Shown one piece after another: positions 7,225-61,792 of a stretch of DNA of 64,000 nt. The notes below the pieces were generated by a model that was not told the origin of the DNA, ran no database searches, and saw nothing but the letters and a program-made list of their open reading frames with translations. Within the stretch, counting starts at the first letter, position 1. The number at the start of each line of letters is the position of its first letter. The DNA comes from Solirubrobacterales bacterium. Its GTDB lineage: Bacteria; Actinomycetota; Thermoleophilia; Solirubrobacterales; Solirubrobacteraceae. Position numbers and translations under genes: made by a program. The stretch spans positions 23,908 through 87,907 of the forward strand of contig JACDGG010000002.1 in assembly GCA_013815355.1 (NCBI GenBank), written 5' to 3'.

Positions 7225-7248
7225 CTTGCGATGCTCACGAGGTAGGGC

Positions 7249-11195: not shown

Positions 11196-11393
11196 ATGCA
11201 TTGCTACCCATGCGCCGAGCAGGGCGTCAATCAACCAGCGGTCGCGCTGTGTCGCAGCTGCAGCGCCGGGCTGTGTCTCGAGCACCTGCGCGAAACGGCG
11301 GATATGTTCGCGGCGGGCCACATCCTCGAGTCTTGCCATCACGACACCTGGGGCGCGAGCAAGACCGGCAGGACAGGGGCGGTTGACCGCTAG
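11196..11393 (+). CDS. Small Cys-rich zinc-ribbon-like protein (DUF2180-like)
   Basis: MHCYPCAEQGVNQPAVALCRSCSAGLCLEHLRE matches the recalled DUF2180 pattern. Strong SD upstream. Confidence 0.65.
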   Translation: MHCYPCAEQGVNQPAVALCRSCSAGLCLEHLRETADMFAAGHILESCHHDTWGASKTGRTGAVDR

Positions 11394-14942: not shown

Positions 14943-14965
14943 GCCGAGACGAGGAGGCAGGCGCG

Positions 14966-16096
14966 ATGAAGCCGACTCAGCGGCTGCACGAGGCGGGCCA
15001 GAGCCTGTGGCTGGACAACATCACCCGGGGTCTGCTCGACTCTGGGACGCTCGAGCGCTACATCGTCGAGGACGCGGTGACCGGGCTCACGTCCAATCCC
15101 ACGATCTTCGACAAGGCGATCGAGGGCGGCTCGGACTACGACACCGAGATCGCCGCCCGCAAGGCGGTGGGTACGTCTGAGGAGGAGGTGTTCTTCGAGT
15201 TGGCCCTGAGCGACCTGCGTCGCGCCGCTGACTTGTTCGCGTCGATCCACGACCACAGCGACGGCGTCGACGGGTGGGTCTCGCTCGAGGTCTCGCCGCT
15301 GCTGGCCCACTACACCCAGGCCACCATCGAGGAGGCCAAGGCGCTGCACTCAAAGGCAGAACGGCCCAACCTGTTCATCAAGATCCCCGGCACCCCCGAG
15401 GGCCTCCCAGCGATCGAGGAGTGCACCTTCTCCGGCGTTCCGATCAACGTCACGCTGTTGTTCTCGGCCGAGCAGTATGAGGCCGCGGCCGAGGCCTACC
15501 TGCGGGGCATCGAGCGGCGGGTGAAGGCCGGCCTTGACCCCGCCGTTCACTCGGTGGGCTCCGTCTTCGTGAGCCGTTGGGATACGGCGGTGGCCGACCG
15601 GGTCCCCGATGAGCTGCGTGACCGTCTGGGCATCGCCGAGGCTGGCCGGGCCTACCGCGCCTACCGGGAGCTGCTCGACTCTCCTCGCTGGGGCCACCTG
15701 GCGAATGAGGGGGCCCGCCCCCAGCGCCTGCTGTGGGCCAGCACCTCGACCAAGAACCCCGCGGCGCCCGACGTGCTGTACGTGAGCGCCCTGGCCGCGC
15801 CCTTCACCATCAACACCATGCCCGAGGCGACCCTGCTGGCATTCGCCGACCACGGACACCTAGAGAACCTGATGACGGCCGACGGCGGCGACGCCGAGAG
15901 AACCCTCGCGGCGTTCGCCGAGGCCGGCATCGACCACCAAGCCCTCGCCGGCCAGCTCCAGCGAGACGGGGCGCAGGCCTTCGATGAGTCGTGGAAGAGC
16001 CTGCTGGCCAGCATCGCCGCCAAGCACGAGCGGCTGACCAACAAGCGGCAGCTGACATCGAGCCAGCCCCCACACATGCGCTATGAGCAACCCTGA
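14966..16096 (+). CDS. tal: Transaldolase (long actinobacterial type)
   Basis: GQSLWLDNITRGLL, TSNPTIF and NLFIKIPGT motifs. Start set at ATG 14966, which follows GAGGAGG. Confidence 0.9.
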   Translation: MKPTQRLHEAGQSLWLDNITRGLLDSGTLERYIVEDAVTGLTSNPTIFDKAIEGGSDYDTEIAARKAVGTSEEEVFFELALSDLRRAADLFASIHDHSDGVDGWVSLEVSPLLAHYTQATIEEAKALHSKAERPNLFIKIPGTPEGLPAIEECTFSGVPINVTLLFSAEQYEAAAEAYLRGIERRVKAGLDPAVHSVGSVFVSRWDTAVADRVPDELRDRLGIAEAGRAYRAYRELLDSPRWGHLANEGARPQRLLWASTSTKNPAAPDVLYVSALAAPFTINTMPEATLLAFADHGHLENLMTADGGDAERTLAAFAEAGIDHQALAGQLQRDGAQAFDESWKSLLASIAAKHERLTNKRQLTSSQPPHMRYEQP

Positions 16097-17447
16097 AGCG
16101 CCCCATCGGGTCGTTGTGGTGGGCGGTGGCTTTGGTGGCCTGCAGGCCGTCCGTGGGCTTCGCCGGGCGCCGGTCGAGGTGACGCTGATCGATCGCCGTA
16201 ACTTCCACCTCTTCCAACCGCTGCTCTATCAGGTCGCGACGGGTGCCCTCTCGCCGGACGAGATAGCCACGCCGCTGCGCGCGATCCTCAAGCGCCAGCG
16301 CAACGTGCGCGTAGTGATGGGCGATGTCCGCCGGTTTGACCTCGACCGCCGAAGCGTCGTGATCGATGAGCTCCCAAACGGCGATCAGGGGGTCGCGATC
16401 GAATACGACACGCTGATCGTCGCCGGCGGCTCGCGTTACTCCTACTTCGGGCACGACGAGTGGCAGCGCTTCGCGCTGGAGATCAAGTCGCTGGAGAGCG
16501 CGCTTGCGGTCAGACGGCGGATCTTCACCGCGTTCGAGGCCGCCGAGATCGAACAGGACCCGGTGCGGCGCGAGGCCTGGTTGACCTTTGTGGTCGTCGG
16601 TGGCGGGCCGACCGGCGTCGAGATCGCCGGGCAGATCGCGGAGCTCGCGCGCGACACGCTGCCCCGCGACTTCCACGCGATCGATTCGCGCCACGCGCGG
16701 ATCCTGCTCATCGAGGCATCCGGACGCATCCTGCCGGCGTTCCCGGCGCGGCTATCAGCGAGAGCCGCCCGGGCGCTTGAGCGGCTCGGCGTCACGCTCG
16801 CGCTCGACACGGAAGTCGTCGACCTCGACCAGCGGTCGGTCTGCACTCGAGATCCTGACGGCACAACCGGGCACGTGCCGACGCAAACCATTGTGTGGGC
16901 GGCCGGCGTGGTCGCCTGCGAGCTCGCCGGTGCGCTCGCCGCCGCCACTGGGACTGAGCCCGACCGCACGGGAAGAGTGGCAGTGAGAGAAGACCTGACG
17001 ATCCAGGGACACCCTGAGGTGATCGCGCTCGGTGACATGGTCAGCGTGCACGACACCACTGGCAAGGATGTCCCGCTGCCCGGCCTGGCGTCGGTCGCGA
17101 TGCAGCAGGGTCGCTACGCCGCCAGGGCCGTCCGCGCGCGTCTACGAGGCGAGCGATCTCCGCCGTTCCGTTACGTCGATAAGGGAAACCTCGCCACGGT
17201 CGGCAGGGCGCGCGCCGTCGCGGACATCAAGGGCATCCAGATCAGCGGCACGCTCGCGTGGATGACCTGGCTGACGGTCCACATCTTCTACCTCATCGGC
17301 TTCCAGAACCGGCTGCTCGTCATAACCCGCTGGGCGTTCAGCTTCGTCACTCGCGGACGCGGCGCGAGACTGATCACCGGCTCTGCACACGCCGCCGCCG
17401 AGGCAGATGTCGTGAGCGCAGCGCCTGAGCGTAAGAACACGGGATGA
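16083..17447 (+). CDS. ndh: Type II NADH dehydrogenase (NDH-2)
   Basis: RVVVVGGGFGGL and FVVVGGGPTGVE folds, GDM motif and a C-terminal amphipathic/membrane segment. Confidence 0.9.
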   Translation: MSNPEAPHRVVVVGGGFGGLQAVRGLRRAPVEVTLIDRRNFHLFQPLLYQVATGALSPDEIATPLRAILKRQRNVRVVMGDVRRFDLDRRSVVIDELPNGDQGVAIEYDTLIVAGGSRYSYFGHDEWQRFALEIKSLESALAVRRRIFTAFEAAEIEQDPVRREAWLTFVVVGGGPTGVEIAGQIAELARDTLPRDFHAIDSRHARILLIEASGRILPAFPARLSARAARALERLGVTLALDTEVVDLDQRSVCTRDPDGTTGHVPTQTIVWAAGVVACELAGALAAATGTEPDRTGRVAVREDLTIQGHPEVIALGDMVSVHDTTGKDVPLPGLASVAMQQGRYAARAVRARLRGERSPPFRYVDKGNLATVGRARAVADIKGIQISGTLAWMTWLTVHIFYLIGFQNRLLVITRWAFSFVTRGRGARLITGSAHAAAEADVVSAAPERKNTG

Positions 17448-17466: not shown

Positions 17467-17829
17467 ATGGACGCAACTCCCACACCGGCAGGCCTCGATG
17501 ATGCTCAGGCCCTCGAGCTGAACTGGGACGAGGTGCTCGAAGCGCTGGCAGCGCTCGAGGGCTCCCGCGTAGCGGTCCGTGTCGTTGAGCGCGGCGAGCA
17601 AGAGACGCTCGTTGTGGTCTTCCGTGGCCACCTCGGAGCAGCGACACGCGGAAAGCACCCAACGGTCTTCTTGCCGGTCCGCGCTGTCGGGGAAGACGAG
17701 CCCGGCGACGTGGAGGACACCGGCATCCACCTGCACCGCGATCGCTTTCACCCAAGCGTGGCCAGTCTCGGACGCACGGTTCTGCACATCGTCCAGGGCC
17801 CAGTGATCGTCAACGTGCGGGGCATATAG
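17467..17829 (+). CDS. Hypothetical protein (120 aa)
   Basis: GC3-rich ORF starting immediately after the motif. No family recognised. Confidence 0.55.
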   Translation: MDATPTPAGLDDAQALELNWDEVLEALAALEGSRVAVRVVERGEQETLVVVFRGHLGAATRGKHPTVFLPVRAVGEDEPGDVEDTGIHLHRDRFHPSVASLGRTVLHIVQGPVIVNVRGI

Positions 17830-17855: not shown

Positions 17856-17933
17856 CGCTGGCGTCCCTACGCGCGGATCGTCTACTTGCATCTGCTGCTC
17901 GACTCGCTGGCCGAGGTTAGCCTCGTGGCTAGG
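17856..17933 (+). pseudogene. 26-codon 3' remnant of an AlkA-type glycosylase paralogue
   Basis: RWRPYARIVYLHLLLDSLAEVSLVAR aligns with the C-terminus of the intact gene at 31322..32299 (RWRPYAGVIYLHLLLDSLSEAGLVAEA). The nucleotide similarity is obvious by eye. Confidence 0.6.
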
Positions 17934-18930
17934 GCGTCAATCTCGTCACCGCCTCGGCCGCGGGGATGACATCGTGCAGGCGGTGCATGGTCTCGCCGGC
18001 ATAGAGCGCACCGGCGTCGACGGTGCGCTCGGGCATACCGGCGAGCGGCAGGGCGGGCGTGAACAGCCCGAGCGCCGGGCGCTGGAGTGAGAGCATCCTG
18101 CCCAACATCCCCAGCGGGACGGCGCCGCCGAGCGGGCCGCTGAGCCTGCTGGCACGGCGTATCCAGCGCGGCCCGAGTTGATCGCCGCGACACCACCGCT
18201 CGGTGGCCGCGTTGGGGATCACCCGGTGACGCAGCGGCCAGCCAAAGCCAAACAACAACGTGACCAGCGTACGATCGGCGGCCAGCACGCGCTCACGGTA
18301 GGCGCGGTGCGCCCCCGACTCCGGGGTGAGCAGGAAGCGGGTGCCTGCGACCGCGGCGGTCGCGCCAGCCGCCAAGACCCGGCGCACGTCTGCAGCGTCG
18401 GCGACTCCGCCGGCGGCGAGCACGGGCTTACCGTCAGCCACCTCTAGTATCCGCGCCAGCGCGTCCATGAGCGGCTCGACGCCCACCAGGTGCCCACCCG
18501 CCTCCACGCCCTGGACGACCAGCCCGTCGGCGTCCTCGGCCAGCGCGCGGCGCGCCTGCTGCGCTGTACCGACGGTATAGAACACCAGCACGCCGCCGGC
18601 ACGCAGACGCGCTAGGAAGCGGGGCGCAAAGCCACCATGCAACACAACCAGCGCCGCGTTTGCCTCCAAGCACGCCGCGACGTGAGCGCTCTTGATGAAC
18701 GGCACGAGCAGGTTGGCCGCCACCGGGCGACCGGGCGCCTTCCGGTGCGCCTCGGCCAGCGCGGCGGCGAACGCCCGCGGCGCCATCATCCCGACTGTCC
18801 CCAGGCCGCCAGCTGCCGATACCGCGCCGGCGAGATCGCCGCCAGCCACCCCGCCGGCCATCCCGGCCTGCACCACCGGGCGCTCGAGCCCGATCTCCTG
18901 TAGGAAACCCACCGATGAAAAGTCTCTCAC
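17929..18930 (-). CDS. Nitronate monooxygenase (2-nitropropane dioxygenase family)
   Basis: RPVVQAGMAGGVAGGDLAGAVSAAGGLGTVG and VLAAGGVADAADV motifs. Start set at GTG 18930, which overlaps the zwf TGA as GTGA. Confidence 0.8.
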   Translation of the reverse strand: MRDFSSVGFLQEIGLERPVVQAGMAGGVAGGDLAGAVSAAGGLGTVGMMAPRAFAAALAEAHRKAPGRPVAANLLVPFIKSAHVAACLEANAALVVLHGGFAPRFLARLRAGGVLVFYTVGTAQQARRALAEDADGLVVQGVEAGGHLVGVEPLMDALARILEVADGKPVLAAGGVADAADVRRVLAAGATAAVAGTRFLLTPESGAHRAYRERVLAADRTLVTLLFGFGWPLRHRVIPNAATERWCRGDQLGPRWIRRASRLSGPLGGAVPLGMLGRMLSLQRPALGLFTPALPLAGMPERTVDAGALYAGETMHRLHDVIPAAEAVTRLTP

Positions 18931-20393
18931 GGCCTGCTGTAGGGCAGGTGCCAGCGATACGGAGTGACGAGCTCGTCGATCGCGTCGGGCCCCCATGACC
19001 CGCGAGCATAGGACAATGGTTTTGGGGGTTGCTCGAGCAACGGCGCCGCGACCTCCCAGAGCCGCTCGATTCCGTCGGCGCGGGTGAACAGCGTGTGGTC
19101 GCCGAGCATCGCGTCGTGGAGCAGCCGCTCGTAGCCCTCGAGGTCGTTGGTGACGTTGAACGAGTCGCCGTAGCGAAACGTCAGCGAAGCGGCCCCGAGG
19201 TCCATGCTCGCGCCCGGCTCCTTGGCGAGGAAGTCGACCCAGATCACGCCCGGATCAGACAGCTCGAAGGACAGCTCATTCGGGCGCGCAGCAGATGAGG
19301 CGCCGGCGGGGAACTCGAACATCGTCCGGGCTGGCTCCTTGAAGCCCACTGTGACGGTGTGGCGGCTCTCGGCGAGCGCCTTACCGGTCCGCAGCTGGAA
19401 CGGCACCCCGGCCCAGCGCTCGTTGTCTATGAGCACGTCGAGTGCGGCGAACGTCTCGACCGTCGAATCGGCCGCGACGCCGGGCTCTGAGCGGTAGCCG
19501 TCGTACTGACCGAAGATTGCCCGCCTAGGGTCGAACGCCATCAGGGCGTCGAATACGTTGCCGGTCGCGTCGCGTAGAGAGGGGGCGTCCAGGTGCGGCG
19601 GGGGCTCCATCGCGATGAACCCCAGCAGGTGCAGGAGGTGGGTGACGACCATGTCGCGGAACGTGCCGGTCTGCTCGAAGAATCCGGCGCGGCCCTCGAT
19701 CGTCAGCTGCTCCGGCACGTCGATCTGGACGTAGTCGACGTGCCGGCGGTTCCAGACCGGCTCGAACAGGCCGTTGGCGAAGCGAAAGGCAAGGATGTTC
19801 TGGACGGCCTCCTTGCCGAGGAAGTGGTCGATGCGAAAGATCTGCGACTCCTCGAGCGCGGTGTGCAGCGTCTGGTTGAGCGTGCGCGCCGAGGCCAGGT
19901 CGTGCCCGAACGGCTTCTCCACGATCAGCCGCGACCGCTCGTTCAGACCCGAGGCGCCAAGCATCGACACCATCGGCTCGAAGGCATCGGGCGGCACGGC
20001 CAGGTAGATGAGCCGCCGCGCATCGCCACCGAGGTCCCGTTCGGCGCGGGCCACCGCTTGCACGAGGGCATCCGGCTGCTCGGCGGTCGCGGCCGCGAAG
20101 GACAGGCGCTCCGCGAACGGCTCCCAGTTCTCGGCGGTGAGCTCCTGGCGGCCGAACTCGCCCAGCGCCTCGCGTACATGCGAGCGAAAGCCCTCCGCGT
20201 CCGGGGCGCCTTCAGGGCGCCCGGACCCGACGATCCGGTAGCGCTCGGGCATCATCCCCGCCACGGCGAGATGAAACAGGCCCGGCAGCAGCTTGCGCTT
20301 AGCCAGATCGCCGGTCGCACCGAACAGGATCAGCACGTGATCCTCAGGGACCGATGACCGCGCGAGGCGAGCGTCGGCGGCGGCTGTGGTCAT
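18927..20393 (-). CDS. zwf: Glucose-6-phosphate 1-dehydrogenase
   Basis: ILFGATGDLAKRKLLPGLF, RIDHFLGKE and the QNILAFRFANG signature. 488 aa. Confidence 0.92.
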   Translation of the reverse strand: MTTAAADARLARSSVPEDHVLILFGATGDLAKRKLLPGLFHLAVAGMMPERYRIVGSGRPEGAPDAEGFRSHVREALGEFGRQELTAENWEPFAERLSFAAATAEQPDALVQAVARAERDLGGDARRLIYLAVPPDAFEPMVSMLGASGLNERSRLIVEKPFGHDLASARTLNQTLHTALEESQIFRIDHFLGKEAVQNILAFRFANGLFEPVWNRRHVDYVQIDVPEQLTIEGRAGFFEQTGTFRDMVVTHLLHLLGFIAMEPPPHLDAPSLRDATGNVFDALMAFDPRRAIFGQYDGYRSEPGVAADSTVETFAALDVLIDNERWAGVPFQLRTGKALAESRHTVTVGFKEPARTMFEFPAGASSAARPNELSFELSDPGVIWVDFLAKEPGASMDLGAASLTFRYGDSFNVTNDLEGYERLLHDAMLGDHTLFTRADGIERLWEVAAPLLEQPPKPLSYARGSWGPDAIDELVTPYRWHLPYSRP

Positions 20394-20980
20394 CGCACGC
20401 TCTGTCCTGCCGGTGCCCGTGTGGAGGGCGTCGTGGTGGCCGCGGCAGCGTAGGTGTCGATCATACGGCGGTAGTTGCCCGCGATGCGCTCGGTCGCCGC
20501 GTCCTCGTGGAGGCGGCCGGCGAAATGCTCACCCAGCGCATCCAGCCAGATAGTCCGGCCGATCGCGAAGCCAACATAGCCCGGCACGGTAGCCGCTTGG
20601 GCGAGCCAGTCCGCGACGCGATCGATGGATGCGCCACGCCCGAGCACTACGCAGCTGACGCGCTCGCGCCCGTCCGTGCGGGCCTGTGCGGCGGCTCGCT
20701 CGCAGTCCTCGCGCGCGTCGAGGCCTTCGATCTTCCAGATGTCGGGCTCGACACCGCTGTCCTGGAGCTCAGCAATCGCGCGCACGACGAGCGCGGGCCG
20801 CAGCTCCCGGTCATAGCGGTCCTGCTCGCCGGCGACCTGGGCGAGCTGCGCAGCCGTAGCGGGAACGAGCAGCTCAAACAGGAGCTTGCGCTCGCGCTCT
20901 GAAAGCCACGCCGAGAGCTCGGCGAGCCGGGCGGCCTGGCGGCGGTTGAGCTGCTCCTCGCCGTCGGGGTTGTAGCGCAC
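20390..20980 (-). CDS. DUF2090 (IolC C-terminal/aldolase-like) domain protein, N-terminally truncated relative to the family
   Basis: VRYNPDGEEQ...DIWKIEGL...GFAIGRTIW pattern. About 100 N-terminal residues are absent. Family-like residues (DYRYDRNRGAPPLL) continue in frame upstream into the 3' end of the HAD gene. Confidence 0.6.
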   Translation of the reverse strand: MRYNPDGEEQLNRRQAARLAELSAWLSERERKLLFELLVPATAAQLAQVAGEQDRYDRELRPALVVRAIAELQDSGVEPDIWKIEGLDAREDCERAAAQARTDGRERVSCVVLGRGASIDRVADWLAQAATVPGYVGFAIGRTIWLDALGEHFAGRLHEDAATERIAGNYRRMIDTYAAAATTTPSTRAPAGQSVR

Positions 20981-21008
20981 AAGCAGAGGCGGCGCTCCGC
21001 GGTTGCGG

Positions 21009-21704
21009 TCATAGCGGTAGTCCTTCCTCGAGCGAGTCGATTGCGTAGTCGGCGCCGGCGTCGCGGAGTTCCTGCACGTTGAAGTGGTGGCTGGCGACGC
21101 CGACGCACTTGATCCCGGCGGCGTGGGCGCCCTGCACGTCGTGCGGTGTGTCGCCGACGACGATCGCCTGCTCCGGCATCACCGGCTCGCCGTAGACCAT
21201 GGTGGCGCGTTTGAGCGCTATGCGGGTCAGCTCGCCGCGGTCGGTGGAGTCAGAGCCATAGCCGCCGAAGGAGAAGAAGCGGTTCAGCCCAGCGCGGTGA
21301 AGCTTGATGTGGGCGGCGGCCTCGAGGTTCCCGGTGACCAGACCCAGCAGGTAGCCGTCCTCGATCAGCTTGGGCAGCAACTCCTCGACACCCGCCAGCA
21401 CCCGGTAGTCCTCGGATTCGGCGACCGTCTGGTGCAGGTAGTGCAGCCGGCGCTCGAGCAGCCGTGTGAACTCCTTGCGCTCGGGCTCACGGTGAAGCAC
21501 CGCTTGGAAGGTCTTGCGTCCCACGTCGGGGTCGGTCATCCCAGTGTCCGTGAACTCGCCGATGTCAGCCGGGATCCCATACAGCTCGTCGAAGGCCAGC
21601 CGCCAGGAGGCGGCGCCCGCGCCACCGGTGATGAGCAGCGTCCCATCTATGTCGAACAGGACAGCGATCCGCTCGTCGGCCCGGTGGTCCTCCGCGTTCG
21701 TCAT
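21009..21704 (-). CDS. HAD-family hydrolase (phosphoglycolate phosphatase-like)
   Basis: VLFDIDGTLL, the VTGN motif and VVGDTPHDVQGAHAAG. 231 aa. Confidence 0.85.
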   Translation of the reverse strand: MTNAEDHRADERIAVLFDIDGTLLITGGAGAASWRLAFDELYGIPADIGEFTDTGMTDPDVGRKTFQAVLHREPERKEFTRLLERRLHYLHQTVAESEDYRVLAGVEELLPKLIEDGYLLGLVTGNLEAAAHIKLHRAGLNRFFSFGGYGSDSTDRGELTRIALKRATMVYGEPVMPEQAIVVGDTPHDVQGAHAAGIKCVGVASHHFNVQELRDAGADYAIDSLEEGLPL

Positions 21705-22720
21705 TCGGCTGGCTTCTCGGCGTGCCCGCCGAACTGGCTGCGCATCGCCGACAGCGTCTGGTCAGCGAAATGGTCGAGGTCCCGCGAAGTGAACCTCGAG
21801 AACAGCGCGGTCGTGAGCACGGGTGCCGGGACGCCCTCCTCGATCGCGGCGATCGCGGTCCAGCGGCCCTCCCCGGAGTCGGACACCCTGCCCGAGAAGT
21901 CCTCGAGCTCGGGGGACTGGAGCAGCGCGGCGGCGGTGAGGTCCAAGAGCCAGGAGGCGATCACGCTTCCACGGCGCCACACCTCGGTCACGGCCGTCAG
22001 ATCGATGTCGTAGGGGTAGTCCTCGGGGTGCTCGAGTGGTGCTGTCTCGGCGTCATCCTCTCGCTTCATCGCGCCGGCGTTGGCATGCTTGAGGATGTTC
22101 AGCCCCTCGGCGTACGCGGCCATCGCCCCGTACTCGATGCCGTTGTGGACCATCTTCACAAAGTGCCCCGCACCGTTCGCCCCACAGTGCAGATAGCCCT
22201 GCTCGACACTCGCCGGCTCGCCGCTGCGGCCGGGGGTGCGCGGCGCGGCGTCGACGCCCGGCGCGATCGCCTGAAACAGCGGGGACAATCGGTCGACGAC
22301 CTCTGTCTCTCCGCCGATCATCAGTGAGTAACCGCGCTCCAGGCCCCACACGCCGCCGCTGGTGCCCACGTCGAGGTAGTGAATGCCCTTCTCCTTCAAC
22401 GTGGCGGCGCGCACGATGTCGTCGCGGTAGTAGGAGTTGCCGCCATCGATGATCACGTCCCCCGAGTCCATCCGCTCACCCAGCTCGGTGATGGTCTGCT
22501 CGGTGATCTCACCGGAGGGCACCATCACCCACACCGCGCGCGGCTTCTGAAGTGCAGAGACGAGCTCATCCAGCGAGCCCGCGCCGCTCGCGCCCTCGCC
22601 CGCCAGTTCCTTGACTGTGTCGGCGTTCACGTCAAAGACGACGCACTCATGCCCGGCGGGCAGCAGGCGCCGCACAAGGTTCGACCCCATCCGTCCCAGT
22701 CCGATCATCCCCAGTTGCAT
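21701..22720 (-). CDS. gnd: 6-phosphogluconate dehydrogenase, decarboxylating (short form)
   Basis: MQLGMIGLGRMGSNLVRRL and IIDGGNSYYRDD, followed by GTSGGVWGLERGYSLMIGG. 339 aa. Confidence 0.9.
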   Translation of the reverse strand: MQLGMIGLGRMGSNLVRRLLPAGHECVVFDVNADTVKELAGEGASGAGSLDELVSALQKPRAVWVMVPSGEITEQTITELGERMDSGDVIIDGGNSYYRDDIVRAATLKEKGIHYLDVGTSGGVWGLERGYSLMIGGETEVVDRLSPLFQAIAPGVDAAPRTPGRSGEPASVEQGYLHCGANGAGHFVKMVHNGIEYGAMAAYAEGLNILKHANAGAMKREDDAETAPLEHPEDYPYDIDLTAVTEVWRRGSVIASWLLDLTAAALLQSPELEDFSGRVSDSGEGRWTAIAAIEEGVPAPVLTTALFSRFTSRDLDHFADQTLSAMRSQFGGHAEKPAE

Positions 22721-23816: not shown

Positions 23817-24542
23817 ATGAGGCCCACGCGTCAGATGTCCTCTAGCGATACGCCACCGGCGACCACTGACCGTGCGCCAGCACCGCTCAAGACGGCCGGG
23901 GTTCTAAAACGCGCCCCCCACCTCGGGCCAGCGACCCAAGCGGCGTCGCGCGCCGAGGTGCTGTTCGAGGTGCCGTTTGAGAGCCCGATGAGCGACGCTG
24001 ACGTTGCCTGTTTGGTCGCCGTGTTGAACATGGTGGTGTGCCTGCATCCGAAGCTGCATGACAGCCCGGCGAGTGCCGGCATCGTTCGCCTCGACTTCGG
24101 CTCGGGTCTGTTTCTCCTCCACGGCAACACCCAAAACGAGTGGAGCATTCAGGCTCGCACTTGGGAACGCCCCGACGAGCAGACGATCCACGACTGGCGT
24201 CTGCTCGCCGCAGACGCGGCTCGCCTGCTCGACCCCAGCGTGCCTGAGCCGATTCGCGCCGGAGCTTCCTGTCGAGTGCCCGTCCAGATCCGGCCGCGGG
24301 GCCTGATACGCCGCTGGCGAAGCTCACGGGCCGGGCGTTTCGCCCGTGAGGACGCGTCCGTCGGGCTGACGAGCTCCCCGGCCGACCGGGCCTCGAGAGA
24401 CCGCTCCGTGAGCGGGCGATCATCACAACGCGTCGCCGAGACGACGAGGCGAGCAGGGGCGGTGCCGGCGCAGGACCTGGCTGGCATCGAGCGCTGGGTG
24501 AACGAGGGCGGCCACATAGCCACAGACACGGTGGTCGACTGA
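23817..24542 (+). CDS. Hypothetical protein (241 aa) with C-terminal ERWVNEGG motif
   Basis: ORF starts directly at the motif. The central part is globular-looking and the tail is Arg/Ser-rich, ending in IERWVNEGGHI. Confidence 0.55.
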   Translation: MRPTRQMSSSDTPPATTDRAPAPLKTAGVLKRAPHLGPATQAASRAEVLFEVPFESPMSDADVACLVAVLNMVVCLHPKLHDSPASAGIVRLDFGSGLFLLHGNTQNEWSIQARTWERPDEQTIHDWRLLAADAARLLDPSVPEPIRAGASCRVPVQIRPRGLIRRWRSSRAGRFAREDASVGLTSSPADRASRDRSVSGRSSQRVAETTRRAGAVPAQDLAGIERWVNEGGHIATDTVVD

Positions 24543-24645: not shown

Positions 24646-24864
24646 CTACTGTGGCTCGCTGGGGCCGATCTCCAGGAGCTCGTCGGAGAGTCGGCGCACG
24701 CGCCCCTGCTCAACGGCGCGCCTCAGCGCGTCCTCGAACATCCCCTGCGGCCACTCGGCCGCGTCAACGGCATCGGCCAAGCGCGCTCGAGTGAGCACGC
24801 GATAGCCGCGTAGCACGCGGACGATCTCCTCGACCCCGGCATCAACGTGTGAATGGATCGCCAT
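24646..24864 (-). CDS. Small hypothetical protein (72 aa), possibly winged-helix
   Basis: GAGGAG lies 5 nt before the ATG. Sequence is GC3-rich and helix-rich. Confidence 0.55.
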   Translation of the reverse strand: MAIHSHVDAGVEEIVRVLRGYRVLTRARLADAVDAAEWPQGMFEDALRRAVEQGRVRRLSDELLEIGPSEPQ

Positions 24865-24933: not shown

Positions 24934-25197
24934 CTAGTGGGTCTTCCATCGGCCACTGTGCAACGCTGAGACGTGCCCTGGCCCTGCCAATGGGTCCAAC
25001 GACGCGCCGGATATGGACGCCAGGGCAGGCCACCGAGCAAACCCGCCTGGCTCGAGGTGATATGCAGCGAATGCGTAAGGCCGCCAGCCGCGCCCAACGA
25101 ATAGTTGGAGCGATCCACGTACAGCGAGGCTGTACGTGACAAAAGCAAGCGGGATCAGTCGCCGCCAGCGCTGTGAACTCAAGGCACTCGTGCTCAT
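24934..25197 (-). CDS. Small hypothetical protein (87 aa), one hydrophobic segment
   Basis: GAGGAGCTAGGAG lies immediately upstream of the ATG, but GC3 is only moderate for this genome. Confidence 0.3.
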   Translation of the reverse strand: MSTSALSSQRWRRLIPLAFVTYSLAVRGSLQLFVGRGWRPYAFAAYHLEPGGFARWPALASISGASLDPLAGPGHVSALHSGRWKTH

Positions 25198-31017: not shown

Positions 31018-31314
31018 GTGTCAGAAGACCCCAGCAGCGACATCGGTAGCGCTCGCAGCATCGATCCCGAGCGCGGTGCGTTCGACCCCCCTGATCACCC
31101 GCCGTTGCGCGATAGCGAGACCAACCCGCGCGGCGTCCGTCACATCGACGAGACGGCCCAGGACGACATGGCGGTCGCAGACCGTCCGCGCTACCAGGCC
31201 GCCCAGCGCCGTCGCTCTGGCATGATCGCCTCAGCGATCGGACGCTTGAAGAACAAGGCGAACCGTAGGGCTGCGCCGTCTCGCTGCGCCCCCGATGATC
31301 CCGAGGTCCCGTAG
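31018..31314 (+). CDS. Small low-complexity/disordered protein (98 aa)
   Basis: GGAGG lies 6 nt before the GTG. Acidic N-terminal half and basic C-terminal half. No family recognised. Confidence 0.5.
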   Translation: MSEDPSSDIGSARSIDPERGAFDPPDHPPLRDSETNPRGVRHIDETAQDDMAVADRPRYQAAQRRRSGMIASAIGRLKNKANRRAAPSRCAPDDPEVP

Positions 31315-55707: not shown

Positions 55708-56556
55708 TCACGCGCCCGTCTCGACGGGGACTCCGACGAGGCTGCCCCACTCCGTCCAGGAGCCGTCGTAATTCTTGACCTGCTCGTGGCCGAGCAGCTC
55801 GTGCAGCACGAACCAGGTATGCGCCGAGCGCTCGCCGATGCGGCAGTAGGCGATGATCTCCTCGCCGTTCAGGACGCCCTTGCCGGTGTATAGGTCACGC
55901 AGCTCCTGCGCCGACTTGAACGTGCCGTCCTCCTGCACGGCCTGCGTCCACGGCACCGAGGCGGCGCTCGGGATGTGCCCGGCGCGCTGCGCACCCTCGT
56001 GCTCGTAGCCGGACGGTGAGACGATCTCGCCCGCGAACTCCGCCGGGGAGCGCACGTCGACGAGCCTTGTCGGGGCATCGACGGCCGCGAGCACCTCGTC
56101 GCGGTACGCGCGGATCGCGTCGTCGCCGGGCTGGGCGGCAAACTCAGCGGCCGGATAGTCAGGGACCGCGGTGCTCGTCGGTCGTCCGTCTGCGATCCAC
56201 TTTTCGCGCGGCCCGTTGAGCAGCAGCACCCTCTCGTGGCCGTAGTACTTCAGGTACCAGTAGGTGTAGGCGGCGAACCAGTTGTTGCGGTCGCCGTACA
56301 GCACGATCGTGTGCTCGCCTGAGACGCCGCGGCTCCCGAACAACCGGCCGAAGTCCTCGGGGCCGAGGAAGTCACGCCTGAGAGGGTCCTGCAAGTCCTG
56401 CTGCCAGTCCAAGCCGATCGCACCGGGTATGTGCGCCGCGGCATACAGCGTGTGGTTCTCATCGACCTCGATGATGCGTATCTCCTCGTCATTCAAGTGC
56501 TGTTCGAGCCACTGCGCCTCTACGAGTACGTCCTTCGCGTAATCAGACACGGGCAA
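55708..56556 (-). CDS. Thiosulfate/3-mercaptopyruvate sulfurtransferase (tandem rhodanese)
   Basis: Two rhodanese repeats and the active-site loop YCRIGERSAH. GTG 56550 (VSDYAK...) is an alternative start. Confidence 0.9.
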   Translation of the reverse strand: MPVSDYAKDVLVEAQWLEQHLNDEEIRIIEVDENHTLYAAAHIPGAIGLDWQQDLQDPLRRDFLGPEDFGRLFGSRGVSGEHTIVLYGDRNNWFAAYTYWYLKYYGHERVLLLNGPREKWIADGRPTSTAVPDYPAAEFAAQPGDDAIRAYRDEVLAAVDAPTRLVDVRSPAEFAGEIVSPSGYEHEGAQRAGHIPSAASVPWTQAVQEDGTFKSAQELRDLYTGKGVLNGEEIIAYCRIGERSAHTWFVLHELLGHEQVKNYDGSWTEWGSLVGVPVETGA

Positions 56557-57211
56557 ATCGCCTTTCCTGTTGGTGTTGATCCTCCGCGGCTCGGTCGGCG
56601 AGGCGCTGTTTAAGCTTGCATCGGGCGTCGTGGAGCGTCTTGTAGAGAGCTCCCGGCGTCGAGTCCAGCCGCTCCGCGAGCTCCTTCGCCGCCACGTCGT
56701 TGACAGCCATGGCGATCAGGACCTCACGCTGGTGGGAGCTCAGATCATGCGCAATCAGATGACCGATCGTGCGGGCGAGCTCACTCGCCTCGCTGAGATC
56801 TTGCGGGTCGTCCCCATCGCCGACACGCTCAACAGGCCACTGCTCGCCATCGGTTGGTGTCTCGCGGGTATGCCCCAAGCGCCGTCGGATCTCGCCCGGC
56901 ACCTCGAGCTGAGCAAAACGACGCGCCCAGGTGGTGAACAGCGCATCGCCGCGGAACTGGTCAAGCTTTCCCAGGATCGCCATCAGCGCATCATCTGCGG
57001 CCTGCAGCGCGAGCTCGTCGAGATCGCGACCTGAAGGGTGCGCCAATCCCGCGGTTCGCCGCCGAACCTCGAAGCGAGCCTCACTCAGCAGAACTGCGTG
57101 CAGCCTTCGGATGGCCGCCTCACGCACCAAGCCCTCGGAGCGCAGCTGCTCGAGCCACCTGCGCGACTGCGGATCAAGCCTGCGTCCCACGGCTGGAGTG
57201 GGCACGCTCAT
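56543..57211 (-). CDS. ECF-like sigma-70 family RNA polymerase sigma factor (paralogue 2)
   Basis: Region 2 (DELALQAADDALMAILGKLDQFRGDALFTTWARRFAQLE) and region 4 (LSSHQREVLIAMAVNDVAAKELAERLDSTPGALYKTLHDARCKLK). Start set at ATG 57211. The track ORF extends to 57418. Confidence 0.75.
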   Translation of the reverse strand: MSVPTPAVGRRLDPQSRRWLEQLRSEGLVREAAIRRLHAVLLSEARFEVRRRTAGLAHPSGRDLDELALQAADDALMAILGKLDQFRGDALFTTWARRFAQLEVPGEIRRRLGHTRETPTDGEQWPVERVGDGDDPQDLSEASELARTIGHLIAHDLSSHQREVLIAMAVNDVAAKELAERLDSTPGALYKTLHDARCKLKQRLADRAAEDQHQQERRFARV

Positions 57212-57467
57212 CGCAGGCCCAACAGGCGACGCCCCAGCCCGGCGGAGTGCCTGTGCGCCACCCGGCCAGGTGGATGCCCTGATGGCCTCGATATGGTCGG
57301 CGCATGGGAACGCAACCGGCGAACCGTCGCGTCGCTGGTGCTGGACCGATATCTCGGTGTCGTTGCGAGCGGGGCCGTGGTGCTCATTTGCTGCCTCCGG
57401 ACCGTCGAGGAATGCCATTTACACACTCGTACTGTAGATAAGCTATCACGTCCGCCAGCAACGAGCT

Positions 57468-57917
57468 TCATGCTCGTCCCGCGCTGGCGCGTATCCACGC
57501 GAGCGCTCGCTTGCGTCGTCCGCGACGGTCAGGGTGTGGCTCGACGATGGAGGTGTCGGCGGCGAGGAAGGCAGTCATCAGCCAGACCGCGATATCCCCA
57601 TCGGTGAGCACAAACCCGGCGTGATCCAGGCGGGCCACGACGTCCTCGCAAAACGACCGGCACACCAGGTCTGTCGGTCGGTGCCCCGTTGCGTCGGCGA
57701 GCATCGCAAACGCCAGCTCCAGCGCGCCCGGTGCCACGCGCCCCCAGTCGAACACGGCGGTGTCCCGGTATTCGAGGTGCGTCAGAGGCTGCAGATCGGT
57801 GCCGACGACGAGGTAGACCTCGGTCGCTTCAGGGCGGCGCCCGACGTAGTGGCGCTCCGGCCGCGAGCGTCGACGGCGCCGGCGTTCATGCCAATGTTCG
57901 GGCGATAGCGCGCGCAT
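57468..57917 (-). CDS. Hypothetical protein (150 aa), small actinobacterial DUF-like
   Basis: YVGRRPEATEVYLVV...FDWGRVAPGALELAFAMLAD...DIAVWL core. ATG 57917 begins 12 nt after the G of the motif core. Confidence 0.6.
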   Translation of the reverse strand: MRALSPEHWHERRRRRRSRPERHYVGRRPEATEVYLVVGTDLQPLTHLEYRDTAVFDWGRVAPGALELAFAMLADATGHRPTDLVCRSFCEDVVARLDHAGFVLTDGDIAVWLMTAFLAADTSIVEPHPDRRGRRKRALAWIRASAGRA

Positions 57918-57922
57918 ATACT

Positions 57923-57953
57923 CAATAGCGTCAAACGTCGATGCGCGTCTTAC
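57923..57953 (-). promoter_or_regulatory. Recurrent promoter-like motif instance GTAAGACG-N16-GCTATTG
   Basis: Minus strand. Heads the string of hypothetical gene, sigma gene and rhodanese gene. Leaderless arrangement. Confidence 0.6.
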
Positions 57954-58261: not shown

Positions 58262-58708
58262 TTAGGAGGGTTCCAGCTCGCCGTGGACGCTGATCTTGAC
58301 GCCGGGGCGCAGCGCGTTTGACACGGGGCAGAGGTCGCTCGCCGCTGCGACGTGGCGCTCGAAGGCAGATGCGTCGAGCCCGGCCACGCGGGCGCGGACG
58401 CTGAGCTCGATGGTTGCGATCCGCGGCGCCCCATCGACCTCGTCCAAAGTGCACACAGCGGCCACCGCCAAATGCTCCGGGGGGCTCTCGGCTTCACCGA
58501 GCACGAGCGCAAGGGCCATCGCAAAGCAGCTTGAATGTGCGGCCGAGATGAGCTCCTCCGGGCTCGTCTTGCCGTCCGGCTGCTCGGTGCGCGAGGCCCA
58601 CGTGACGGGCAGTTGATCGAGCGCGCCACTTCGCGTCGATAGCGTGCCCGTTCCGCGTGCGAGCGTGCCGTCCCAGGTGATCTCTGCTTGTCTGACTGCG
58701 ATGGCCAT
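58262..58708 (-). CDS. OsmC-family peroxiredoxin
   Basis: SPEELISAAHSSCFAMAL and LCPVSNAL Cys motifs. Start set at ATG 58708. Confidence 0.85.
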   Translation of the reverse strand: MAIAVRQAEITWDGTLARGTGTLSTRSGALDQLPVTWASRTEQPDGKTSPEELISAAHSSCFAMALALVLGEAESPPEHLAVAAVCTLDEVDGAPRIATIELSVRARVAGLDASAFERHVAAASDLCPVSNALRPGVKISVHGELEPS

Positions 58709-58933: not shown

Positions 58934-58970
58934 AGTAACGGAACATTGATCGAGAGGAGCATTGATCGCC

Positions 58971-60233
58971 ATGCCAAGCCGAGCCATACACAAGCCCTCT
59001 CTTCCACGCGTGGTTGTTGCCGGCGGCGGAGTCGCTGGGCTGGAGACGCTATTGGCGTTGCACGCGCTTGCGCGAGACCGTGTGGATGTCACGGTGCTGG
59101 CACCGGAGCTGAGGTTCGTCAACCTCTCGATGGCCGTCGATCAACCCTTCAAGCCGAAGCGTGGTCGTGGCTTTCGCCTCGAGGACACCGCGGTCGAGCT
59201 CGGTGCTCGCTGGCACCACGGAGTTCTCGACCACATCGAGCACGAAGCACATCGAGTGTTCACCAGGGATGGCGAGGAGCTCCCGTACGACATGCTCGTT
59301 CTTGCCGTCGGGGCTCATCCCGAACGGGAGTGGCAGTCGGTGGATGTCCTGACCTATCACGGCGGGCACGACGGGCCCAGCTACGAGCTGCTGCTCCACC
59401 ACCTTCTCGAGGGGCAGATCAGCAGGGTGGCGTTCGTCAAGCCAGCAGGAGCGAGCTGGCCGCTGCCGCTTTATGACCTGGCGTTGATGACCGCCGCGGA
59501 ATGCGCCCGTCACGGGCGCTCCGGGGTCGAGCTGAGCCTGATAACGCCCGAGGAGGAGCCGCTGGGGATGTTTGGCGCTGCCGCCAGCGCTAAGGTCCGC
59601 GAGCTTCTGGAGGCTGCCGGGGTCACTCTGCACACGAGCAGCTACGGCGCGCCGACTCACCGGGGATGGCTCGAGATCTCTCCCGGCGAGCGCGGTATGC
59701 GGGTCGACCGAGTCATCACCGAGCCACGACTGGCCGGTCCCCGGCTGCGCGGCATCGCGTGTGCGGCCGATGGGTTCATACAAACCGATGCCCACGGTCG
59801 GGTGATCGGCTTGGACGATGTGTTCGCAGCGGGTGACGCGACGACGTTTCCGGTCAAGCAGGGTGGCCTCGCCGCCCAGGAAGCCGACGCCGTCGCCGAA
59901 GCGATCGCTGCATCCGTGGGTGCCGAGATCGAGCCGCAGCCGTTTCATCCGATTCTCCGCGGCGTGTTGCTGACCGGGGGACCCGCGCGCTACATGCGCG
60001 CGGACATCAGCGGCGGCGCCGGCGATGACTCGACGATCTCTCGCGAGGCGCTGTGGTGGCCGCCGGACAAGATCTCCGGACGCTACCTCGCGCCCTATCT
60101 CTCGAGCCAGGTCGGCGAGGCCCTTGACGTCATGCCTCAGGGTGAGGATGTGATCCCCATCGAGATCCCACTTGAGTCCGTGGCGTCGAGCACGCTCGGC
60201 TTCGGTGAGCTCACGGACCTGCCGCTCAGCTGA
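58971..60233 (+). CDS. FAD-dependent oxidoreductase, sulfide:quinone oxidoreductase-like
   Basis: RVVVAGGGVAGLETLLAL fold and FAAGDATTFPVKQGGLAAQEA. ATG 58971 preferred over the TTG at 58962. Confidence 0.8.
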   Translation: MPSRAIHKPSLPRVVVAGGGVAGLETLLALHALARDRVDVTVLAPELRFVNLSMAVDQPFKPKRGRGFRLEDTAVELGARWHHGVLDHIEHEAHRVFTRDGEELPYDMLVLAVGAHPEREWQSVDVLTYHGGHDGPSYELLLHHLLEGQISRVAFVKPAGASWPLPLYDLALMTAAECARHGRSGVELSLITPEEEPLGMFGAAASAKVRELLEAAGVTLHTSSYGAPTHRGWLEISPGERGMRVDRVITEPRLAGPRLRGIACAADGFIQTDAHGRVIGLDDVFAAGDATTFPVKQGGLAAQEADAVAEAIAASVGAEIEPQPFHPILRGVLLTGGPARYMRADISGGAGDDSTISREALWWPPDKISGRYLAPYLSSQVGEALDVMPQGEDVIPIEIPLESVASSTLGFGELTDLPLS

Positions 60234-60313: not shown

Positions 60314-61792
60314 ATGAGCACCACGACTTCGAGCAGCGTCGATATACCATCGGATTCTCGGCGCCGTTCGGTCGGCTCGCCGAACCCGACCACCCAGGTC
60401 GAGAGGCTCGCGCGGTTCGTTGCCGACTCGCGCTGGGAGGACATCTCCGATGCGGCCCGTGAGCAGCTGAAGCTCCGCGTCCTTGACTCGCTGGGCTGCG
60501 CGCTCGGCGCGCTGGGCGCCGAGGTGCCCGCGATGGTGCGTGCGCAGGTCCACGAGTTCGGTGGTGCGCCCCTGGCCACGCTGATCGGCGGGGGAAAGAG
60601 CGCACCCGATCGCACGGCTCTCTACAACGGCGCGCTCGTGCGCTACCTGGACTTCAACGATTCCTATCTCGCGCCCGGGGAGACATGCCACCCAAGCGAC
60701 AATCTCGCGGCGGTGCTCGCCGCTAGCGAGTACGCCGGTACGAACGGCCGCACGCTATTGACCGCGCTCGCGGTCGCCTATCAGGTGCAGAATCGTCTCA
60801 GCGAGGTTGCGCCGGTGCGCGCCAAGGGGTTTGACCACACGACGCAGGGAGCCTACGCGGTGGCCGCCGGGGTGGCGCGCGCACCCGGACTTGACGAGCA
60901 GCGGATCGCGAACGCGGTCGCGATCGCCGGGACGTCCCTGAACGCGTTGCGCGTGACCCGCACCGGCGAACTGTCGCACTGGAAGGGCCTCGCCTATCCG
61001 GCAACCGCAGCTGGTGCGACGCAGGCGGCGTTCCTCGCGAGGCTCGGCGTCACTGGCCCGCGCGAAGTGTTCGAGGGCAACAAGGGCTTCATCGAGGCGA
61101 TCGCGGGCCCGTTTGAGATCGACTGGGCCCGGGAGGATCTCGAGTCTGTACGGCGCACGATCCTCAAGCGCTATGACGCCGAGGTTCACTCCCAATCGGC
61201 GATCGAAGCATTGCTCGAGCTGCGCTCCAAGCACGATCTGAACGCGAGCGACGTCGAGCGCATCGAGCTCGACACGTTTCAGGTCGCCTACGACATCATC
61301 GGCGGCGGCGAGGAGGGCGAGAAGCACTCAATCGCCACCAAGGAGGAGGCCGACCACTCACTGCCCTACCTACTCGCGGTAGCGATGATCGACGGCCAGG
61401 TACTGCCCGAGCAGTATCTCACGGAGCGGATCGTCGCTGAGGACGTTCAGGGGCTCTTGGGTCGCGTGGAGGTGCGCCCCGATGGGGAGTTCTCACGACG
61501 CTTCCCGGCTGAGCACAGCGCCCGTGTGCGGCTGTACCTGCGCGACGGGCGCACGCTCGAGCGTGAGCAGCATGACTACGAAGGCTTTCACACGCGGCCG
61601 ATGAGCTGGGACACCGTGGCCGCAAAGTTCGACCGGCTCGCAGGCGCGCACATCGAGTCCGGGCTTCGCGCCCGGATCCAAGACGCGGTGAGCAACCTCG
61701 ACGAGCTGGAAGTCCAGGAGCTCACGGCGCTGCTCGCCGGCACGACGCAAGCCGATCTGGACCCCGCACTGAGACGAAGGAGACAAAGATGA
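60314..61792 (+). CDS. MmgE/PrpD-family protein (2-methylcitrate dehydratase-like)
   Basis: 492 aa. LDSLGCALGA, CHPSDN, FDHTTQG and the C-terminal domain are typical of the family. Confidence 0.85.
   Translation: MSTTTSSSVDIPSDSRRRSVGSPNPTTQVERLARFVADSRWEDISDAAREQLKLRVLDSLGCALGALGAEVPAMVRAQVHEFGGAPLATLIGGGKSAPDRTALYNGALVRYLDFNDSYLAPGETCHPSDNLAAVLAASEYAGTNGRTLLTALAVAYQVQNRLSEVAPVRAKGFDHTTQGAYAVAAGVARAPGLDEQRIANAVAIAGTSLNALRVTRTGELSHWKGLAYPATAAGATQAAFLARLGVTGPREVFEGNKGFIEAIAGPFEIDWAREDLESVRRTILKRYDAEVHSQSAIEALLELRSKHDLNASDVERIELDTFQVAYDIIGGGEEGEKHSIATKEEADHSLPYLLAVAMIDGQVLPEQYLTERIVAEDVQGLLGRVEVRPDGEFSRRFPAEHSARVRLYLRDGRTLEREQHDYEGFHTRPMSWDTVAAKFDRLAGAHIESGLRARIQDAVSNLDELEVQELTALLAGTTQADLDPALRRRRQR

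Follow-up and report, generated by a model that had tools for sequence, protein, structure and literature searches.

Is an extracytoplasmic function (ECF)-like sigma factor gene transcribed from a promoter that its own product reads? The question is raised by a 64,000-nucleotide (nt) stretch of contig JACDGG010000002.1, referred to here as the window, which has a G+C content of 67% and whose closest homologues point to a Solirubrobacterales-like member of the class Thermoleophilia as its source. On the minus strand, a bipartite motif stands at the head of a short string of genes that includes the sigma gene, here called sigA. A sequence-only reading of this DNA had described the motif, a hypothetical gene, sigA and a rhodanese gene as one co-directional string and had proposed sigA as a candidate autoregulated cognate sigma factor. 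All of these features were found where that reading had placed them, and they are given below together with a candidate promoter element and a relic open reading frame (ORF) that lie between the first gene and sigA.

57926–57953, minus strand: motif heading the sigA operon, with the −35 element GTAAGA (57953–57948), a 15-nt spacer and the −10 element GACGCTA (57932–57926).
57468–57917, minus strand: DUF6166 gene, first of the operon, 149 residues, assigned by Pfam PF19663 and leaderless geometry.
57440–57448, minus strand: candidate sigma-A-type extended −10 element, TG-A-TAGCTT, predicted by reading the sequence.
57208–57387, minus strand: relic ORF of the sigma-coupled partner gene, 59 codons, recognized by its GGAGG, its ATGA and its matching ends.
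56543–57211, minus strand: sigA, ECF-like sigma factor, 222 residues, defined by a start shared with homologues, by profiles and by AlphaFold2 (AF2).
55708–56556, minus strand: tandem-rhodanese (thiosulfate sulfurtransferase-like) gene, Pfam Rhodanese PF00581.

We put at roughly 70% the probability that an ECF-like sigma family including sigA reads the GTAAGA/GACGCTA motif, that the motif-headed sigA operon is positively autoregulated, and that the family drives the other motif-bearing genes. RNA polymerase with an ECF-like sigma would read G-TAAGA-(N14/15)-GACGCTA and, at the copy at 57953–57926, would start a leaderless transcript at or near ATG 57917. We infer that the four genes are co-transcribed, the transcript running through the DUF6166 gene, the 59-codon relic, sigA and the overlapping rhodanese gene; active sigA would thereby raise its own synthesis, which is positive autoregulation. 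The sigma-A-type extended −10 at 57448–57440 may add basal expression. The other 12 copies in the window, which head trehalose, pentose-phosphate, universal stress protein (USP), OsmC, FAD oxidoreductase and PrpD genes, would be driven by sigA, by its paralogue sigB or by both, within what may be a redox, stress or dormancy regulon of roughly 150–300 promoters per genome.

Judged by modeled fold and by architecture, sigA is ECF-like. Twenty-two homologues share its first residue, confirming the start at 57211, and its domains are a sigma-2 (residues ~14–111), a 25-residue linker and a sigma-4 (~136–221). The AF2 model (predicted local distance difference test score, pLDDT, 76) showed helical domains at 14–111 and 136–221 separated by a disordered linker (115–139), with no sigma-3; a protein of sigma-2 and sigma-4 only, lacking sigma-3 and region 1.1, has the domain composition of an ECF factor. 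The top Foldseek matches were sigma-E, Mycobacterium tuberculosis sigma-H and sigma-L, AlgU, SigW and CnrH, all with probability 1.0. At the sequence level, about 38 NCBIfam ECF models aligned across sigma-2 to sigma-4 (best E = 8e-11), SigW was the best PDB match, and a family profile searched against the PDB returned ECF sigmas only. FliA and WhiG models were absent from the NCBIfam matches listed, which comprise the best 25 of 38 for sigA and all 13 for sigB.

Pfam Sigma70_r2 matched neither sigA nor sigB, while Sigma70_r4_2 (19.7 and 24.0 bits, respectively; cut-off 25.7) and TIGR02937 (36.5 and 37.6 bits; cut-off 42.9) matched both below threshold. Because these Pfam and TIGR02937 cut-offs were missed, we label the family ECF-like rather than a curated ECF member. 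ECF classification 2.0 left out sigmas whose domains miss Pfam models (PMC7826278), and this family would fall outside it since Sigma70_r2 is missed and the other scores lie below cut-off. The family is large, with 3652 protein matches and more than 438 genomic loci, and ranges over Solirubrobacterales, Thermoleophilaceae, Gaiellales and Miltoncostaeaceae as well as Gemmatimonadota. Within the window, the family profile found no members beyond sigA and sigB. The sequence-only reading had called the latter a close paralogue next to a Crp-like regulator; the gene and its neighbor are present, but at 48% identity sigB belongs to a sub-family of its own.

25390–26025, minus strand: sigB, paralogue of sigA (48% identity), in a separate orthologous sub-family.
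26379–27137, minus strand: Crp-like helix-turn-helix (HTH) regulator upstream of sigB (Pfam HTH_Crp_2), a linkage that is not conserved.

The motif itself has the features of a promoter. Its consensus, GTAAGA-N14/15-GACGCTA, is bipartite and asymmetric with a fixed spacer of 14/15 nt. With at most one mismatch allowed across 12 core positions, 13 copies were counted in the window, compared with none in the reversed window and a mean of 0.27 (maximum 2) in 60 Markov-1 simulations, and every copy is oriented towards a gene. At seven copies the start codon lies 33–36 nt past the G of GTAAGA, the others having short leaders with a Shine-Dalgarno sequence; the leaderless geometry of 33–36 nt recurs at 50 of 83 motif-headed genes of relatives. 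The resulting positions are approximately −34 to −30 for GTAAG and −12 to −8 for CGCTA, and because of this placement an ECF-type or sigma-28-type promoter fits while a sigma-A −10 box does not. Ahead of sigA, ATG 57917 lies 36 nt past the G of GTAAGA and 8 nt past GACGCTA. Since this distance matches the 33–36 nt of the other copies, the DUF6166 transcript is probably leaderless.

The evidence that carries the assignment comes from a comparison of about 300 related loci (labeled L###). In 91 of them (739 kb) there were 94 motif copies against 2 in the reversed control, and the copies were sharply concentrated immediately before the sigma operon and immediately after the sigma gene; outside the sigma neighborhood the density dropped to 21 copies in 497 kb, or ~0.04 per kb. 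The arrangement around the sigma gene differs by sub-family. In sub-family I, the sigA type, the order is motif, DUF6166 gene, 67-residue gene, 180–190-residue gene overlapping the sigma start, and sigma gene, and the motif precedes DUF6166 in all 9 loci whose DUF6166 gene lies upstream in the same orientation. Sub-family II (~50% identity) has the motif, a leaderless gene of 66–86 residues and then the sigma gene, and in 39 of 41 loci GTAAG[AG] precedes the leaderless start of the small gene by a fixed 34–36 nt; in L108, L127 and L128 the sigma gene itself is leaderless behind the motif. In silico, these two sub-families support the proposal of an autoregulated cognate sigma well. For the sigB type, the motif falls right after the sigma gene (+610 to +998) in 17 of 27 orthologues, the same place as in the window. 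Gemmatimonadota homologues (37–41% identity) have the sigma gene followed by an overlapping 76-residue gene resembling a zinc-binding anti-sigma (ZAS) protein, and in 24 of 26 of them GGTAAGAT-N13-GC[GC][AC]C[GA]CTAAC stands at the end of the sigma–ZAS pair, where it heads an alpha/beta-hydrolase gene. By transcription unit, the motif was found on 23% of sigma units versus 10% of others (p = 0.002), figures that are only rough since the gene caller, based on codon usage and on G+C content at third codon positions (GC3), preferred the opposite strand for sigA and for the DUF6166 gene (56543–57917).

The association also holds in the opposite direction. An exact pattern, GGTAAGA-N13-CGACGCTAR, was scanned over 185,579 species genomes, a search independent of how the sigma loci had been chosen, and returned at least 118 loci. 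Among the matches listed, 66 are from high-GC genomes and about half are low-GC chance matches. A sigma-family gene occurs within 8 kb in 26 of the 66 high-GC matches listed and within ~1.1 kb in 20; with a chance expectation of ~1%, this is ~40-fold commoner than expected, and in those 20 loci the motif occupies the same upstream or downstream positions. Exact matches were also seen in Kribbella (L228, L234, L297) and Acidimicrobiia (L248, L272), with a sigma-family homologue (38–42% identity) less than 1 kb from the motif in L234 (K. pratensis) and L248. Judged from these loci, the sigma–motif module reaches beyond Thermoleophilia and Gemmatimonadota. It is mainly because of this two-way association across two phyla that we accept the cognate assignment, in which the sigma would bind the motif. 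ECF sigmas usually autoregulate, and this habit is an accepted basis for predicting ECF promoters (PMC7826278). A conserved bipartite promoter before its own operon, the in silico form of that test, is present at the sigA operon of the window.

The anatomy of the operon gives further detail. The DUF6166 protein scored 51.4 bits against PF19663 (cut-off 27) over model positions 1–91 of 93, and its gene holds the equivalent position in L002–L006, L065, L066, L070, L071 and L139. Between it and sigA, the relic ORF has a GGAGG 6 nt upstream of its ATG, and its stop overlaps the sigA start as ATGA. Its N-terminus, MSTTAPLATTPR, and its C-terminus, GLGRRLLGLR, match both ends of the partner genes in 13 relatives. 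Compared with those 180–190-residue genes, the first ~16 and last ~25 residues match and a core of ~110 residues is missing; because both ends match while the core is gone, the sigA-coupled partner gene, read against these relatives, is the product of an internal in-frame deletion, and the 67-residue gene has been lost. Downstream, the rhodanese gene (PF00581, E = 1.1e-30, with two matched stretches indicating tandem domains) starts at TTG 56556 or GTG 56550 and overlaps the sigA stop (56545–56543) by 14 or 8 nt, in agreement with the overlap noted earlier. The rhodanese gene was rejected as a conserved operon member, its linkage to the sigma gene being confined to a nearly identical relative (L139–L142). 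This closest relative has a sigma protein 96% identical to sigA and the same gene order. It keeps both motif elements while 5 spacer bases differ, and it keeps the start position, with GTG in place of ATG. Its DUF6166 gene carries a 31-codon in-frame insertion and differs in the N-terminal coding region, and the counterpart of the relic is called as a 50-residue gene in L140–L142.

Several observations weigh against autoregulation from a cognate promoter. Neither sigA nor sigB reaches the curated thresholds that Pfam and TIGRFAM set for ECF sigmas. No motif lies upstream of sigB, either in the window or in sigB orthologues, and the Gemmatimonadota sigma genes are not motif-headed, so autoregulation does not extend to the whole family. 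Roughly 10% of neighboring transcription units carry a motif copy, and this abundance makes a copy before a given operon less special than it would be in a small ECF regulon. The sigma-4 peptide GAIYKTLHDAR served to retrieve the loci, making its invariance partly an ascertainment effect. GC3 is 0.73–0.77 for sigA and the DUF6166 gene versus 0.89 for the rhodanese gene. Finally, a plausible independent promoter can be read inside the 256-nt gap ahead of sigA, and the motif resembles a sigma-28 promoter, TAAG-N15-GACGCTAA differing from the sigma-28 sequence TAAA-N15-GCCGATAA at 3 of 12 positions, or at 2 in GCCGCTAA copies.

The gap promoter gives rise to one alternative, which we regard as unlikely: the motif would drive the DUF6166 gene alone, with sigA and the rhodanese gene expressed mainly from a promoter of their own, and sigA would not be autoregulated here. 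It does not exclude the cognate-promoter model. The gap (57467–57212) is long for an operon, and the operon is rearranged, having lost two genes that occupy this interval in relatives. A conserved AT-rich patch downstream of the DUF6166 gene and ahead of the relic ORF contains TG-A-TAGCTT (TG-A-TAACTT in L139–L142), similar to the GCGCTAnnnT −10 boxes of tRNA genes in relatives; it escaped our consensus scan of the minus strand at 55500–58400, which needs a −35 and returned neither a sigma-70-type promoter nor a terminator. The gap itself contains no terminator-like site and no stable structure (z = −0.32 against shuffles), and it still includes an ORF that has a ribosome-binding site and is translationally coupled. 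Motif, DUF6166 gene and sigma gene lie on one strand with short intergenic gaps in 9 of 9 relatives. The sequence-only reading would have taken as refuting its proposal an independent promoter or a terminator between 57468 and 57211 together with a sigma deletion that leaves motif-bearing genes unaffected; of this, the candidate promoter is the part that turned up. ECF operons often have two promoters, a constitutive one and an autoregulated one, and sigA may likewise possess a basal promoter of its own besides the autoregulated one, an arrangement compatible with autoregulation.

The resemblance to sigma-28 promoters suggests the most serious rival, in which a sigma-28/FliA/WhiG-type (group 3) factor reads the motif and the ECF-like sigma operons are regulon members, forming a cascade rather than an autoregulated loop. 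Spacing and distance to the start equal those of sigma-28 promoters, and WhiG homologues are present in Thermoleophilia (PMC8325347). The G of TAAG and the C of CGCTA are nevertheless fixed and are never the sigma-28 bases, and a search of ~0.8 Mb for canonical sigma-28 sites with at most one mismatch gave none beyond chance-level matches and variants of the motif. sigA itself has no sigma-3 domain. Nor do the targets fit: the 95 motif-headed genes scanned are stress and redox genes, without motility, pilus or cyclic di-GMP genes, and known WhiG regulons have 10–20 promoters compared with hundreds here. A cascade also does not predict that the best motif copies cluster at ECF-like sigma genes in two phyla, as they do. 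On balance we find this cascade improbable.

The motif might instead be the housekeeping (sigma-A) promoter of the lineage, with nothing specific to the sigma operon. Its abundance, 13 copies in 64 kb and ~10% of neighboring transcription units, would suit such a role, as would the CGCTA that it has in common with the tRNA −10 region. Yet five of five tRNA genes of relatives (L081, L084, L114, L122, L128) carry GCGCTAnnnT, with its TAnnnT, and none has GTAAGA, while a T at the T-7-equivalent position occurs in just 1 of the 13 window copies. In related genomes these tRNA −10 boxes stand without a recognizable −35; the GCGCTAnnnT style is probably the housekeeping promoter of the lineage. Because the tRNA promoters differ and the T-7 equivalent is almost never T, the housekeeping reading is very unlikely. 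Moreover, a TA at −9/−8 from a leaderless start is too close for a sigma-A −10, the central 20 kb of the window (34–53 kb) has no motif copy, the motif also adjoins homologous sigma genes in Gemmatimonadota, and no translation, ribosomal or flagellar genes occur among the 95 motif-headed genes scanned. Scans of the window for tRNA and Rfam families gave no matches. That the motif is a binding site for a transcription factor such as the Crp-like protein, rather than a promoter, is scarcely credible: its sharp conservation and the Crp-like gene beside sigB are set against a sequence that is non-palindromic, strictly gene-oriented and a fixed 33–36 nt from leaderless start codons, and against the absence of the Crp-like gene from almost all related motif-bearing loci.

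If the cognate-promoter model holds, what controls the sigma? The sequence-only reading had seen no adjacent anti-sigma with a ZAS or transmembrane signature, and Pfam and NCBIfam likewise revealed no anti-sigma domain (ASD), ZAS or transmembrane protein adjoining sigA or sigB. Its two suggested partners, the upstream DUF6166 protein (given there as 150 residues) and the Crp-like protein, are not supported. The DUF6166 protein has H-x6-C-x3-C (GHRPTDLVCRSFCED), not the ZAS H-x3-C-x2-C, with Gln in place of the His in L003. Pfam matched it to no anti-sigma family, it is a conserved first gene in one operon type only, and two genes separate it from the sigma gene in relatives. The Crp-like HTH gene adjoins the sigma gene in 5 of 27 sigB orthologue loci and in 0 of 91 other loci, and for this rarity its product was rejected as a partner. 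A single conserved downstream partner was also rejected, as the genes after the sigma gene vary (flavodoxin-like, DoxX-like, SRPBCC-like, OsmC, GTP cyclohydrolase I).

Three other protein classes are linked to the sigma genes. In relatives, the conserved sigma-coupled partner is the 180–190-residue gene that overlaps the sigma start. Its family comprises ~36 hypothetical proteins with a conserved 105-residue alpha/beta core, MFxVPFxTAMSDADI...SGLFL...W..EGRTW...W...AA.AA..LDP, and members adjoining a sigma gene end in ...RLAxLRRRLVGLP. The window retains an intact, motif-headed, leaderless paralogue of this family at 23817–24542 on the plus strand, 42% identical to the L003 partner (E = 8e-24). 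AF2 modeled the core of its product with a pLDDT of about 90; the fold matched nothing in the PDB with E < 0.09, and the family has no Pfam entry. In sub-family II, the small protein of 66–86 residues, WRRRRLxAAGF...VDLHELLxLLDRGCPPxLAARILAPL, is encoded just upstream of the sigma gene (about −380 to −40) in 41 Thermoleophilia loci (L012, L073–L138) and in Specibacter sp. RAF43 (L191); this 'WRR' protein is a candidate regulator of the sigma. Pfam and NCBIfam searches with the 'WRR' protein, the 67-residue protein and a 186-residue protein found no family. The Gemmatimonadota gene of 76 residues overlaps the sigma gene and encodes H-x3-C-x2-C (THMANCAACRED; L185–L219). In L188, for example, it spans 3614–3844, which is +614 to +844 from the sigma start at 3001, with the motif at its end; by its sequence the product is a ZAS-like candidate anti-sigma.

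The remaining motif copies of the window, with one weaker copy, are as follows.

58825–58852, minus strand: motif heading the OsmC gene 58708..58262, just ahead of the DUF6166 promoter, which shares its strand.
57994–58021, plus strand: divergent motif followed by ATGAGCACC, in a ~90-nt segment absent from L139–L142.
58904–58930, plus strand: motif heading the FAD-dependent pyridine nucleotide-disulphide oxidoreductase gene 58962..60233.
60280–60306, plus strand: motif heading the leaderless MmgE/PrpD-family gene 60314..61792.
10096–10122, minus strand: motif heading the HAD (9982..9239) and GH65 phosphorylase (9242..6972) genes.
10189–10215, plus strand: motif heading the tandem-USP gene 10288..11175.
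11140–11166, plus strand: motif heading the DUF2180, DUF488, ferredoxin-reductase-like, transketolase, transaldolase and NDH-2 string 11196..17447.
17431–17457, plus strand: motif heading a leaderless gene of 120 residues, 17467..17829.
23670–23697, minus strand: motif at the head of the 6PGD, HAD, DUF2090, G6PD and nitronate monooxygenase (NMO) string 22720..17929.
23783–24542, plus strand: motif (23783–23809) and leaderless 241-residue partner-family gene (23817..24542).
25300–25326, minus strand: motif 64 nt past the sigB stop, pointed away from sigB.
30965–30991, plus strand: motif heading a gene of 98 residues, 31018..31314, and an HhH-GPD gene.
6541–6567, minus strand: weaker copy (GTAAGG) upstream of the DUF2231 gene 6549..5899.

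The copies form two blocks (6541–23697 and 57926–60306) with trehalose, pentose-phosphate and redox genes. The divergent copy at 57994–58021 with its ATGAGCACC looks like a relic of a prpD promoter and start, because the start context is the same as at the prpD promoter at 60280 and in L002; the 68-codon ORF that follows scores poorly as coding sequence and is directed towards the 3′ end of the OsmC gene. The copy just after the sigB stop was correctly noted in the sequence-only reading. Behind it stands GTG-TGA, and an overlapping second GTG begins an ORF of only 27 codons, which leaves no clear gene. Candidate products of this promoter are an 87-codon ORF (25197..24934) with a good ribosome-binding site and low GC3, and a 72-codon ORF (24864..24646) with homologues after sigB in L144, L145 and L170. 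The motif-free central 20 kb holds ETF-QO, a NarL/HisKA_3 two-component system, USP, hemerythrin, MetE and COX1; the NarL/HisKA_3 pair is DosR-like and the USP gene is a second tandem-USP gene. An ORF of 128 residues at 41503–41889 on the minus strand matches only positions 241–358 of the GH65 catalytic domain and is probably, on that match, a fragment or pseudogene of a second trehalose/maltose phosphorylase.

Gene content in other genomes is similar. Motif-headed genes there encode pyridine nucleotide-disulphide oxidoreductases, GTP cyclohydrolase I, OsmC, AhpC and CMD/AhpD-like proteins, as well as DoxX, transaldolase, DUF488, USP, DUF2231, PPK2 and nitroreductase; DUF2231, behind the weaker copy in the window, is thus motif-headed elsewhere too. 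Such a gene content suggests a regulon for redox, stress or dormancy rather than for motility or housekeeping.

A broader picture can be put forward only tentatively, as a possibility we hold at less than even odds. An unclassified ECF-like clade of Thermoleophilia and Gemmatimonadota, scattered also in Acidimicrobiia, Kribbella and Specibacter, might constitute a general stress, redox or dormancy sigma that reads a sigma-28-like GTAAGA-N14-GACGCTAA on hundreds of mostly leaderless genes. At least two kinds of partner would then control it, the 66–86-residue 'WRRRRL...RGCPP' proteins and the 180–190-residue alpha/beta partners, both of them new classes of anti-sigma or sigma co-factor, and sigA would perhaps be deregulated through loss of the partner core. 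Few soil bacteria are as abundant, and few have been studied as little, as Thermoleophilia (Solirubrobacterales, Gaiellales) and Gemmatimonadota, whose gene regulation is barely known. Our literature search found nothing on DUF6166, on Thermoleophilia promoters or on this ECF-like sigma group. If the model is true, one short motif would predict a large regulon in thousands of uncultured genomes, covering trehalose use, both oxidative and non-oxidative pentose-phosphate pathways, USP, OsmC, AhpD-like proteins, FAD oxidoreductase and GTP cyclohydrolase I. Further gains would be a sigma family overlooked by ECF classifications through failed Pfam thresholds, an ECF-type promoter that mimics a sigma-28 promoter, and new candidate anti-sigma proteins. 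Orthogonal sigma–promoter pairs are useful parts for synthetic circuits.

Compared with known systems, the sigA operon is closest to autoregulated ECF (group 4) operons such as those of E. coli sigma-E and of actinobacterial SigR/SigH with the ZAS anti-sigma RsrA/RshA. It shares with them the sigma-2/sigma-4 fold and a bipartite −35/−10 promoter that heads both its own sigma operon and neighboring redox genes. In the Gemmatimonadota homologues, the overlapping H-x3-C-x2-C gene of 76 residues after the sigma gene is a further likeness. The promoter, however, is GTAAGA/GACGCTA rather than the GGAAC/CGT type of group 4, most targets are leaderless, and the apparent regulon is far larger than is usual for ECF sigmas. 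Unlike ECF–ZAS systems, the Thermoleophilia loci lack a recognizable anti-sigma and have instead the upstream 66–86-residue 'WRRRRL...RGCPP...ILAPL' proteins or the 180–190-residue alpha/beta partners.

By analogy only, sigma-EcfG of Alphaproteobacteria (EcfG–NepR–PhyR) is also similar, being an autoregulated ECF-type sigma with a very small partner and a broad stress regulon. The sigma-EcfG regulon includes USP- and OsmC-type genes. Apart from the ECF fold, the two sigmas are unrelated in sequence, the EcfG promoter is GGAAC-N16-CGTT, and no PhyR-like anti-anti-sigma was seen in the loci examined. The likeness to sigma-28/FliA/WhiG promoters extends to equal spacing, equal start distance and 9–10 of 12 consensus bases, but sigA has a 25-residue linker in place of sigma-3, the G/C deviations are fixed, and the targets are not motility or pilus genes. 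As with SigI, ComX and VP0055, which were omitted from the ECF classification (PMC7826278), sigA is sigma-70-related with a domain below the Pfam threshold; no homology to these proteins was seen, and both of its domains are detectable by NCBIfam ECF models and by fold. An autoregulated ECF-type sigma is thus a known theme, while the unclassified clade, the unusual promoter, the large and mostly leaderless predicted regulon and the candidate partner proteins would be new.

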